From NCBI GenBank assembly GCA_946495905.1, contig CAMMEP010000001.1, positions 9,089 to 73,088 on the forward strand: a stretch of DNA of 64,000 nucleotides, in the 5' to 3' direction. A program made the translations under genes and the position numbers. Position 1 is the stretch's first letter, and each line of letters starts with the position of its first letter. The DNA is from an uncultured Clostridium sp. (lineage in GTDB: Bacteria > Bacillota > Clostridia > TANB77 > CAG-508). Below the pieces are notes generated by a model. The model had not been told where the DNA came from, did no database searches, and saw only the letters and a program-made list of their open reading frames with translations. This document shows, in pieces, positions 2,947-57,616 of this stretch.

Positions 2947-3010
2947 ATTCCTAATTGGGGACAGGCACCAATTAGGAATATCCGGACAAAAAAGCCTGTC
3001 CCCAATTAGG
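2947..3010. promoter_or_regulatory. paired 19-bp inverted repeats TTCCTAATTGGGGACAGGC / GCCTGTCCCCAATTAGGAA with an alternative partner in between, abutting the RBS of the downstream gene
   Basis: Seen directly. The 3' arm ends 1 nt before the GGAGA RBS. A middle segment CCAATTAGGAA can pair with the 5' arm instead. A related motif recurs at 15793-15821 and 50466-50486. Confidence 0.4.
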
Positions 3011-3021
3011 AAGGAGAAAAA

Positions 3022-8949: not shown

Positions 8950-9095
8950 AAAGCTAGACAAAAATGAATAAATATAGTATAATTAGAGTACAATAAAGGT
9001 AGGTTATTTGAGGTGGACAAAAGTGCCATCCACACACCTGAATGGTCAAAAGAGATGCAGGATTTGGCACACCTGCCAAATAACCAAACAAGAAA

Positions 9096-13278: not shown

Positions 13279-13466
13279 AAAGCCAGATAAGATGTATATT
13301 TCTCAAATTTTTAAGTCGCTTGTTGTCGAAACCATATAAGCACAATTTAAGAAAATATATTTTCTTAAATTGTGCTAGGTTTCTTCAATCGCACTCGCCT
13401 AAAAGGCTCGTTTGGTCGCTACGCGCTCCTACAAAAATTTTCTAAATATACATCTTATCTGGCTTT
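13279..13466. repeat. structured palindromic repeat, family 1, copy 1 (23-bp perfect terminal inverted repeats, conserved core, internal 17-bp hairpin)
   Basis: AAAGCCAGATAAGATGTATATTT ... AAATATACATCTTATCTGGCTTT. The core is ~90% identical to 31780-31921. Confidence 0.7.
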
Positions 13467-31706: not shown

Positions 31707-31754
31707 CGGTAACAAATCTCGTTACTAAATAATGGTATTATTAAATTTTATTTA

Positions 31755-31946
31755 TGCAATCCAACTAGTATGTATGTTTCTCAAATTTTTTTGTCGCTTG
31801 TTGTCGAAACCATCTAACCACAATTTCAGGAAATAAATTTCTGAAATTGTGCTAGGTTTCTTCAATCGCACTCGCCTTTGAAAAGGCTCGTTTGGTCGCT
31901 ACGCGCTCCTAAAAATTCTCTAAACATACATACTAGTTGGATTGTA
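31755..31946. repeat. structured palindromic repeat, family 1, copy 2
   Basis: CAATCCAACTAGTATGTATGTTT ... AAACATACATACTAGTTGGATTG. The core is ~90% identical to copy 1. Stem differences are compensated. Confidence 0.7.
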
Positions 31947-32077
31947 AGACGAAAAGAAATCAAAACTATTATCTAGTAACCAAATCTCTGACGATTTTTA
32001 GAAAAATAGTGATAATGCCTAACAAATGTGGTATTATATAACTAAAAGTTCTTTTATGCTTATTGGAGGGAAATACA

Positions 32078-35263: not shown

Positions 35264-35300
35264 GACTTAAATTGTCACAATTCACTGTTACCTTAATATC

Positions 35301-35450
35301 AAGAAGAAGTATATATTTTTTCTTTTTATTTCCGGCCCCCAACATCGTACAAACTGTAAATGCTCAATTTCATTTCGCTTAACAGTTTGTAAACTTGTCG
35401 GTCCCCACCTTAAGCACTCCAATAAAAAGAAAAAATATATACTTCTTCTT
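35301..35450. repeat. structured palindromic repeat, family 2, copy A (30-bp perfect terminal inverted repeats around a conserved core)
   Basis: AAGAAGAAGTATATATTTTTTCTTTTTATT ... AATAAAAAGAAAAAATATATACTTCTTCTT. Core: TCCGGCCCCCAACATCGTACAAACTGT...ACAGTTTGTAAACTTGTCGGTCCCCACCTTAAGCACTCC. Confidence 0.7.
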
Positions 35451-35599
35451 AAAAAATAGTCTGTGAATTTTACCATTTCAAATTCCATAAAATGTAAAAT
35501 TCAAAATGGTAAAATCTTGAAACTTACTAAAAAATGTGGTATAATATAATTTGTAACTCGTAGAAAAATGCATCGTCCAATTGGACAAAGGAGGACAAA

Positions 35600-48868: not shown

Positions 48869-48928
48869 ACTTGCGATTTTGTAGTTATTTTTAAATTTAC
48901 AGTTTAAAGTATAATATATTACCAGATT

Positions 48929-49221
48929 GTAGTGCTTTCTAAAAAAGTGTTATATATCACAGTCGCCTTTTGTCAGAGCAATGTATATTTTAAGTTTATG
49001 TTTCCAGCCCCCAACTGCATAACAGTCTGTAGTAAAAATTACATTGGTTTTCGCTTATATTCTACCTTGAAGAAAAAACAAGTTTTTTCTTCAAGAGTAA
49101 TTTTTCCACAGACTGTAACTTGTCGGTCCCCACCTTAAGCACTCCATCATAAACTTAAAATATACATTGCTCTGACATTTTTGAACAAGCTATGATTCGT
49201 AACACTTTTAGAAAGCACTAC
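48929..49221. repeat. structured palindromic repeat, family 2, copy B (nested inverted repeats; the core carries an extra internal hairpin insert)
   Basis: Outer inverted repeat GTAGTGCTTTCTAAAAAAGTGTTA / TAACACTTTTAGAAAGCACTAC. Inner inverted repeat CAGAGCAATGTATATTTTAAGTTTATG / CATAAACTTAAAATATACATTGCTCTG. Core shared with copies A and C. Confidence 0.7.
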
Positions 49222-49355
49222 GTACTGGTATATTAAATAAAATTTAATGTATGCAAACCTAAGCAATAACAAGTATTTCAATTTTTCAATGCATAAAAAA
49301 CCCTTTTATGCATACAATAATGAAAAGGACAAGTTCAAAAAGGTGATTATTACAT

Positions 49356-55860: not shown

Positions 55861-55906
55861 AAAGAGAGCAAAAGGTTGCAACCCTTTTTGTGCTCTTTGA
55901 AAATAC

Positions 55907-56113
55907 TAGTTACAATTCACGGTTATTTTTGATCGGAGCAATGTATGTTTTAATTTTATGTTGGAGTGCTTAAGGTGGGGACCGACAAGTTTACAAACTG
56001 TTAAACTGAACGAATGTGAAGTTTTTACAGTTTGTACGATGTTGGGGGCCGAAAACATAAAATTAAAACATACATTGCTCCAACATTTTAGAATAGCCTG
56101 TGAATTGTAACTA
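55907..56113. repeat. structured palindromic repeat, family 2, copy C (opposite orientation to A and B)
   Basis: Inner inverted repeat GGAGCAATGTATGTTTTAATTTTATG / CATAAAATTAAAACATACATTGCTCC (26 bp, perfect). Outer inverted repeat TAGTTACAATTCAC / GTGAATTGTAACTA. The core is the reverse complement of the A/B core. Confidence 0.7.
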
Positions 56114-56206
56114 ATACTAATAAAACCATTCTGATTTAAACAAATGTGTTGAAAAAGTGTATAAAATGTGATACAATACATATAATAGATTAGGAGGTGT
56201 TATATT

Positions 56207-56476
56207 ATGGCTAAAACAGATACATTGCATATAAGAGTAGAACCAACAGTTAAAAAGAAAGCTGAAGAAACATTAAATGAATTAGGGATGTCAATCACTG
56301 AGGCTATTAATGTATTTTTAAACCAAGTTATATTAAATGATGGTATTCCATTCGAAATAAAGAAACCTAGACTAAATAAAGAAACTATACAAGCATTAGA
56401 AGATACAAGAAATGGAAAAAATTTGAGTAAGACATTTGAAAATGCAGATGAAATGTTTAAGAAGTTGGATAAATAG
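56207..56476 (+). CDS. dinJ: RelB/DinJ family antitoxin
   Basis: LHIRVEPTVKKKAEETLNELGMSITEAINVFLNQVILNDGIPFEI matches the DinJ/RelB ribbon-helix-helix fold. AGGAGG RBS. Confidence 0.7.
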   Translation: MAKTDTLHIRVEPTVKKKAEETLNELGMSITEAINVFLNQVILNDGIPFEIKKPRLNKETIQALEDTRNGKNLSKTFENADEMFKKLDK

Positions 56477-57424: not shown

Positions 57425-57616
57425 TAACGGCTCAGATGGGTAAACCTGTTTAATAGTATTAAAATTAGATATGTCCTGCAACGGGAGTTTTAATTAAAAA
57501 AATCTCGCTTCGTCCCGACGGAGCTCCCTGCTCCGCTCGATTTTTTAATTATAAACTCCCAGCGCGGACTTTAAATAATCTATACTATTAAACAGGTTTA
57601 CCCATCTGAGCCGTTA
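57425..57616. repeat. 192-bp imperfect palindrome (family 3): 35-bp perfect terminal inverted repeats, nested inner inverted repeat, GC-rich centre around GGAGCTCC
   Basis: TAACGGCTCAGATGGGTAAACCTGTTTAATAGTAT ... ATACTATTAAACAGGTTTACCCATCTGAGCCGTTA. Inner GGGAGTTTTAATTAAAAAAATC / GATTTTTTAATTATAAACTCCC. Centre TCGCTTCGTCCCGACGGAGCTCCCTGCTCCGCTCGA. Confidence 0.6.

Follow-up and report, generated by a model that had tools for sequence, protein, structure and literature searches.

In bacteria, MITEs are recognised as small elements (generally <200 bp, up to about 400 bp) in which terminal inverted repeats surround a core and the insertion is marked by a target-site duplication; they contain no transposase gene, and their ends match an autonomous insertion sequence of the same organisms (PMC3184786). 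By this definition, the Correia/NEMIS elements of Neisseria, RUP of Streptococcus pneumoniae and bcr1 of Bacillus cereus are long-hairpin MITEs (PMC3184786). All of these are non-coding and about 200 bp long, with terminal inverted repeats around a core, a target-site duplication, tens of intergenic copies, a predicted long stem-loop and presence/absence polymorphism. The target duplication of Correia and RUP elements is TA. The REP/BIME and REPIN families are extragenic palindromes with module mosaics, nested hairpins and positions after genes; REP and REPIN sequences have neither terminal inverted repeats nor target duplications and rely on a Y1 transposase. Both features are also absent from IS200/IS605 elements. 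The ERIC/IRU sequences of enterobacteria, reportedly described by Wilson & Sharp in 2006, are said to be imperfect palindromes in transcribed intergenic DNA that are more conserved between species than junk DNA. Invertons are short segments between perfect inverted repeats, found in both orientations across related genomes.

Here, we analyse a repeat, Family-2, that is present three times in a window of 64,000 nucleotides, the whole stretch of DNA under study, from an uncultured Clostridium sp. (contig CAMMEP010000001.1). Family-2 has all the features listed above for Correia/NEMIS, RUP and bcr1, but it shows no sequence similarity to them, its interior is more conserved than its ends, almost its whole length is palindromic and its parent insertion sequence was not found; the duplication is 8 bp, unlike that of Correia and RUP. 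It also shares the features named for REP/BIME and REPIN. Unlike REP and REPIN, however, it possesses terminal inverted repeats as well as target duplications, and the related loci showed no Y1 gene. Family-2 may also resemble ERIC/IRU, in its similar size and in the variants with extra internal segments at fixed points, although the host belongs to another phylum and the sequence is unrelated. Like an inverton, the segment lies between perfect inverted repeats and is found in both orientations across related genomes; unlike an inverton, it has no promoter, its arms differ from copy to copy, it is not adjoined by a recombinase gene, and no mixture of orientations was seen in the contigs at the three window loci. 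We conclude that Family-2 is probably a non-coding DNA transposon of about 200 bp, a MITE that is almost wholly a foldback palindrome, in uncultured gut Clostridia.

Anatomy of the three copies

The three copies were located where a sequence-only reading of the window had placed them, at 35301-35450 (copy A), 48929-49221 (copy B) and, inverted, 55907-56113 (copy C), and all three are intergenic, as it had stated. From the common core that it had described, the 22-nt block CGGTCCCCACCTTAAGCACTCC occurs exactly three times in the window (at 35399 and 49124 on the plus strand, and at 55963-55984 on the minus strand) and did not occur in any of 100 shuffled windows. The direct repeat CGGYCCCCAMC, proposed to be present twice per copy, was found six times, two in each copy, as compared to 0.13 expected. 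The core stands out as GC-rich, as had been noticed, because the G+C content of the window is only about 29%. The limits of the elements were corrected to 35274-35473 for copy A, 48949-49203 for copy B and 55909-56111 for copy C.

The members of the family follow a common layout. From the outside in, an 8-bp target-site duplication is followed by a terminal inverted repeat of 14–16 bp, a short spacer, the AT-rich stem P1 of 28–33 bp and a GC-rich core of about 90 nt enclosed by P1. In many copies the layer outside P1 reads GTTACAATTCACAG ... CTGTGAATTGTAAC, and the total length is then 193–204 bp. In the core, a 10-bp hairpin whose tip varies is flanked by two direct repeats of the form CGG(C/T)CCCCA(A/C)C. 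Read from left to right, it contains TT(C)CGGCCCCCAAC, a variable 4-nt spacer (ATCG or TGCG), the hairpin P3 (TACAAACTGT/ACAGTTTGTA), AACTTGT, CGGTCCCCACC and TTAAGCACTCC. The P3 tip of 20–25 nt is variable and usually self-paired (P4). The motif CCAAC is able to pair with GTCGG, with an invariant mismatch that is A.C as written and G.U on the opposite strand.

The inverted repeats that close each copy are perfect, with 100% complementary arms, as claimed in the sequence-only reading; their lengths, however, are 30, 30 and 28 bp in copies A, B and C, and not 30, 27 and 26 bp. These P1 arms lie at 35301-35330/35421-35450 in copy A, 48971-49000/49148-49177 in copy B and 55935-55962/56054-56081 in copy C. 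An additional outer layer of inverted repeats had been ascribed to copies B and C; it is present in both but not confined to them, since copy A has a decayed version.

Copy A, on the plus strand, is 200 bp long as read from the sequence, which fits the 193–204 bp of complete copies. Its decayed terminal inverted repeats are GTCACAATTCACTG at 35274-35287 and CTGTGAATTTTAC at 35461-35473, and the two 30-nt P1 arms enclose the GC-rich core at 35331-35420. Within this core, also on the plus strand, the left direct repeat CGGCCCCCAAC (35333-35343) is followed by hairpin P3 (TACAAACTGT at 35348-35357 and ACAGTTTGTA at 35382-35391), which leads into the variable apical segment, by the right direct repeat CGGTCCCCACC (35399-35409) and by TTAAGCACTCC (35410-35420).

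Copy B is a plus-strand element of 255 bp with terminal repeats GTTATATATCACAG (48949-48962) and CTATGATTCGTAAC (49190-49203) and direct repeats at 49005-49015 and 49124-49134. The compensated change in its central hairpin (ACAGTCTGT/ACAGACTGT) and its extra internal hairpin (49066-49079/49082-49095) were both confirmed. This B-type centre is not unique to the window copy but recurs in loci L044, L046, L052, L083 and L084. Outside copy B lies a palindrome at 48920-49230, with 25-nt arms (48920-48944/49206-49230) that are 88% complementary; it is unrelated to the repeat family, and copy B has its terminal repeats besides.

Copy C, on the minus strand, is 203 bp long and has intact terminal repeats (55909-55922 and 56097-56111), with the core inside the P1 arms. 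The earlier claim that the element contains no ORF holds apart from a mechanically called ORF of 91 aa (55906-56181, minus strand) that overlaps copy C and is probably spurious. Directly downstream, at 56207-56476, is a RelB antitoxin gene, followed by a YafQ-type toxin, according to their Pfam marks. A minus-strand mini-ORF of the element (GGAG, 8 nt, GTG GGG ACC GAC AAG TTT ACA AAC TGT TAA) was treated as a chance occurrence because neither B-type copies nor copies with TTTACAG preserve its length.

Host range and abundance

For the census, an exact 18-mer of the core was scanned against 185,579 species genomes. At least 93 loci were matched; 90 of the matches listed are real copies, some of them truncated or interrupted, and chance matches in GC-rich or coding DNA were seen at L049, L060 and L075. 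The real copies come from at least 17 species-level MAG assemblies of "uncultured Clostridia / Clostridium sp.", and one MAG contains at least 15 loci. When up to 2 mismatches were allowed, 102 copies were counted in the listed loci and the window. The proposal of a genuine repeat family was borne out: no fewer than 17 AT-rich MAGs of uncultured Clostridia carry the core, at 100 or more places in total. Beyond the copies by which the loci were ascertained, about one extra copy is present per 58 kb, and the window has three in 64 kb, a density that points to tens of copies in each genome and perhaps to as many as about 100.

The core 18-mer had no match in viral contigs, and BLAST of a full copy against plasmids and phages gave none either. 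A string search of the literature found no paper that mentions the core or the terminal-repeat sequences. The family is previously undescribed, abundant and unannotated in gut Clostridia. Several metagenome contigs, including L109 and L110, end inside copy C, showing that the repeat breaks metagenome assemblies. The analysis thereby documents an abundant repeat in poorly known Clostridia of the human gut, whose assemblies are broken by it.

Terminal repeats, target-site duplications and empty sites

Both GTTAC-type ends (GTTACAATTCACAG/CTGTGAATTGTAAC, with up to 4 mismatches) are present in 17 of the 88 copies among the loci listed. Complete copies measure 193–204 bp, except for two B-type copies of 240 and 255 bp and the copy at L039 of 216 bp. 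In the remaining copies the terminal repeats have decayed or been replaced, and other copies sit within different outer palindromes ("T2") or unique terminator-like hairpins. For copies without both terminal repeats, the mobile unit is undefined.

The 8-nt flanks of the 17 complete copies match at 8/8 positions in three (L003, L040 and L054), at 7/8 in two and at 6/8 in five, as compared to about 2.3/8 expected by chance from the AT-rich composition. Copy C in the window is flanked by AAATACTA (55901-55908) and TAATACTA (56112-56119), which are identical at 7/8 positions. An empty site of copy C had 0 matches in the metagenome collection, a scan with no positive control for the presence of the species.

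Filled and empty versions of a site were found elsewhere. One locus was compared across four species, two of which (L087 and L036) show nothing there but the native terminator. In L027 the site is occupied by a sister element with ends of the same type and a duplication, GAACGAAA, that is single in the empty sites of L036 and L087. In L012 it is occupied by a Family-2 element that ends at the same base as the sister element. Further filled and empty pairs are L021 versus L007 and L015 versus L018. The insertions in these pairs closely follow a stop codon or a terminator hairpin, and copies in general are typically located 20–60 nt past the upstream stop codon or just beyond the native terminator, in either orientation.

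Based on the terminal inverted repeats, the target-site duplications and the empty sites in related genomes, the three window copies are best read as a MITE. The size (193–204 bp, and 240–255 bp for the B-type) falls within the range of the class, the GTTACAATTCACAG/CTGTGAATTGTAAC ends and the 8-bp duplication are those of a MITE, and the 200 bp contain no ORF of relevant size and no coding signal. The sequence-only reading had set a catalogued IS or MITE end against its own proposal of a selected structure; the element is of that kind, a MITE, but not a catalogued one. The element inserts into intergenic DNA, usually after a stop codon or native terminator, and under the proposed mechanism it would be mobilised in trans by a DDE-type transposase encoded elsewhere that makes 8-bp staggered cuts.

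No transposase is located near the window copies, in agreement with the sequence-only reading. In about 760 kb of related loci, we found no autonomous element bounded by the terminal repeats, no multi-copy transposase and no inverted GTTAC-type pair flanking an ORF; two distant pairs are the ends of separate elements, and the multi-copy protein clusters are unlike transposases in size and genomic context. An unpaired end in L028 is followed by non-coding DNA. Insertion sequences are often missing from MAGs.

The direct repeats around a hairpin had also been likened to the ends recognised by hairpin-dependent transposases. A HUH/Y1 enzyme of the type found in IS200/IS605 and REPIN/RAYT would then move the element as single-stranded DNA, which fits the nested hairpins and the direct repeats that flank one of them, and the orientation bias described below could reflect the direction of replication. 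The likeness is contradicted by the terminal inverted repeats and the 8-bp target duplications, since these are incompatible with transposition of the IS200/IS605 type. Moreover, the outer stems are free to vary in sequence, and no multi-copy transposase-like gene was found in the 760 kb. Movement by such an enzyme is extremely improbable.

Complementarity of the stems

The sequence-only reading had taken the compensated stem differences as covariation that argues for a selected RNA or DNA structure. Covariation statistics were calculated for 47 non-redundant copies, in which 92.4% of the cells are paired, versus 73.6% in shuffles and 35–40% when the partners are slid. Double changes were observed in 376 cells, versus 112 in shuffles, and none of 500 shuffles reached the observed value. 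All 24 of the 24 P1 pairs have double changes, with 1–29 double changes per pair and 0–3 one-sided changes. The stems are thus kept complementary, and that part of the claim stands at the DNA level; RNA is not indicated. Selection on an RNA should leave G.U intermediates on the strand of that RNA. Among approximately 2,950 P1 positions in 88 copies, 2,719 are Watson-Crick pairs, 24 are mismatches of the G.U type on one strand and 30 on the other. The absence of G.U intermediates and the symmetry between strands point to maintenance of an inverted repeat in DNA, and not to a strand-specific RNA.

Several substitutions and an indel separate the P1 stem of L072 from that of its orthologue L085, and every one of these is mirrored on the opposite arm, which fits templated correction from arm to arm. 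The "compensated" differences would arise and persist in the DNA, likely by such correction in combination with selection against mismatched palindromes. Striking covariation can thus stem from the upkeep of a DNA palindrome instead of selection on RNA, which calls for caution in the discovery of RNA motifs. In L004, P1 differs from the orthologues L026 and L058 by three A-to-G changes, all of which give a G.T wobble on one strand.

A structured RNA, original or co-opted, could nevertheless work in cis as part of the upstream gene's 3' untranslated region. It might, for instance, form a long hairpin that stops exonucleases or serves as a substrate of RNase III, with the unpaired C-rich loops as a binding surface. 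The folding z-scores of the copies, −8 to −15 on either strand, favour this reading. The stems, nearly devoid of G.U pairs and without strand asymmetry, speak against it, as do the negative searches: no promoter or terminator was found inside the element, no U-tract follows the stem and Rfam returned nothing specific. The element is not catalogued in Rfam, which was searched with all copies and the sister families at gathering and relaxed thresholds; the matches below threshold were generic long hairpins (miRNA precursors) only. Integron attC sites, dif/Xer sites and known self-cleaving ribozymes were rejected because their motifs did not fit on visual inspection and Rfam was silent. The sole Rfam family above its gathering score in the window is the skipping-rope RNA RF02924 at 9003-9084 on the plus strand (69.9 bits, E = 8e-15).

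Conservation in place and orientation

Conservation in place was measured from one orthologous pair per locus at 12 loci, excluding the ascertainment 18-mer. Identity is 97.2% in P1 and core and 93.7% in the flanks, most of which are coding (odds ratio 2.3, p = 1.5e-9), so that the flanks at orthologous loci change about 2.3 times as fast as the core and stems. The core alone is 98.4% identical between orthologues, and the variable tip is 58% alike among paralogues and 96% among orthologues. A neutral GC-rich segment in a genome of 29% G+C is expected to decay fast, and the slow change in place is not predicted for a purely selfish, decaying MITE.

The C-rich strand is sense to both neighbouring genes at 40.5 of the loci listed and antisense at 9.5, with orthologues collapsed (p = 2e-5). 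This bias of about 4:1, despite demonstrable flipping, argues for an orientation-dependent constraint. The GC skew per locus, tried as a means of separating transcription from replication as the cause, was too noisy.

The location 20–60 nt past the upstream stop codon, the sense bias of the C-rich strand and the conservation above that of the flanking genes are also what an RNA in the 3' untranslated region would lead us to expect. On the other hand, about 20% of the copies are antisense, the interior flips between species and large parts of the element have been lost in some strains, and a position after genes is also expected for any MITE under purifying selection in a compact genome. Taking these points together with the stem data, we regard the RNA reading as unlikely.

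Returning to the MITE, the conserved core would be required in cis, where it would serve mobilisation or else affect the upstream transcript in a manner that depends on orientation. It may thus represent a cis requirement for mobilisation, a co-opted 3'-UTR hairpin or an exchangeable cassette. The conservation of the core, the orientation bias and the exchange of cores described below are hints that a part of the element has been put to use, and could contribute to explaining how host functions arise in MITEs.

Deletions, inversions and replacement of the core

After insertion, the element behaves as an unstable palindrome and undergoes deletions between short direct repeats. The strain variants L098 and L099 lack 190 bp of copy B by a deletion between ATTTT repeats, and in L108 copy C has lost the 68 bp that separate its two direct repeats; the neighbouring proteins are identical in all cases. 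Only a remnant of the element is present in L061 where L021 has a full copy. Copies with central losses were also seen at L033 ~2460-2560, L033 1112-1173 and L061 5622-5686: a coreless chassis lies at L033 ~2460-2560, the P1 arms abut as a near-perfect palindrome in one coreless copy, and two others are remnants with central deletions. The possibility that the arms were copied from the target at insertion was rejected because the arms retained by two alleles with partial deletions are opposite ones, and their junctions show microhomology.

At 3 of 70 loci among those listed, species-level orthologues differ in the orientation of the interior. In L011, compared to L072 and L085, the inversion occurred by exchange between the outer arms, and in L020 versus L045 the breakpoints are exactly at the P1 arms, with flanks that are 99% identical. 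These cases, together with the perfect inverted repeats of 28–33 bp, would also be consistent with a phase-variable inverton in which a site-specific recombinase flips the P1-flanked core. The arms, however, have a mean ungapped identity of only 56% between copies, so there is no common recombinase site, and the core contains no promoter. At each of loci A, B and C, the strain-level contigs share a single orientation, and the inverted allele of copy B was unmatched in a metagenome scan that had no positive control. Close inverted repeats are moreover expected to invert without a dedicated enzyme. A dedicated inverton is accordingly highly unlikely, and the interior of the element inverts by exchange between its own arms.

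Occasionally, the core is also replaced by the core of another copy, as observed between the orthologues L007 and L061. A second pattern concerns the left direct repeat, which reads GGCCCTTTGGC instead of GGCCCCCAAC in L012, L014, L025, L029, L033, L051 and L081. The variant is spread over several unrelated P1 subfamilies, and the orthologues of L025 and L051 (L009/L050 and L079) keep the standard form. The recurrence of the same multi-base change suggests a repeated origin by a templated event or by conversion between copies. At the contig start of L036 (1-97), a Family-2 core is split at the tip of its central hairpin by about 75 nt bounded by GGGAAATTTGACA/TGTCAAATTCCC.

Sister families

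GTTAC-type ends and similar P1 arms carry three unrelated GC-rich cores, F1, F2 (Family-2) and F3. F1 is present in the window at 13279-13466 and 31709-31992, with a core of the form …GTCGCTTGTTGTCGAAACC…GGCTCGTTTGGTCGCTACGCGCTCC… and P1-like arms that resemble those of Family-2. One of these copies (~31724-31979) has the ends GTTACTAAATAATGG/CTATTATCTAGTAAC and a perfect 8-bp duplication, CAAATCTC. The cores of F1 and F2 both end in GCRCTCC beside the right arm. F3, with the core …GTCCTGCAACGGGAG…GGAGCTCCCTGCTCCGCTCG…, is located at 57425-57616 in the window, in L029 (~700-990), and in L015 and L016. The window copy has perfect 35-bp arms (TAACGGCTCAGATGGGTAAACCTGTTTAATAGTAT), and the same core in L015 and L016 has GTTAC-type ends.

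The combination of similar ends and arms with three unrelated cores raises the alternative that the GC-rich core forms an exchangeable cassette of its own. It would be either a very small element directed at the tip of the hairpin chassis or a module passed between chassis by gene conversion, in which case the direct repeats could be the footprint of an older insertion of the central hairpin. Consistent with this, a single genomic site carries an F2 core in L012 and an F1 core in L027, an F3 unit is nested in the F2 core of L029, L033 has a coreless chassis, the orthologues L007 and L061 differ in their core, and one strain variant of copy C is missing precisely what lies between its direct repeats. 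Yet MITE subfamilies with common ends and different interiors are frequent and can arise without a dedicated mechanism, plain deletion can account for both the coreless copy and the L108 variant, no solo core was seen outside a chassis, and no fused direct repeat was seen among 102 other copies. We consider a separate cassette quite unlikely. The broader version of this idea, in which the hairpin chassis is a carrier of exchangeable and invertible GC-rich cassettes (F1, F2, F3 and others) kept intact and oriented by selection, is speculative, and we give it a low probability. If true, the family would represent dispersed orientation-dependent modules for regulation or recombination, and the cores would move or convert from one hairpin tip to another through an as yet undescribed mechanism.

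The T2 palindrome is a recurrent terminator-like sequence, AAAAGGGGACGGGC…GCCCGTCCCCTTTT, usually within TTTGCAAAA…TTTTGCAAA, and is located at 2948-3012 in the window, at 690-760 in L045 and at 2456-2600 in L078. It was found alone, around other sequences or around a Family-2 unit, and forms the outer layer in L001, L004, L008, L011, L013, L026, L035, L056, L058, L059, L080, L085, L086 and L092. Compared with L072 and L085, L011 has the interior between the T2 arms in the opposite orientation.
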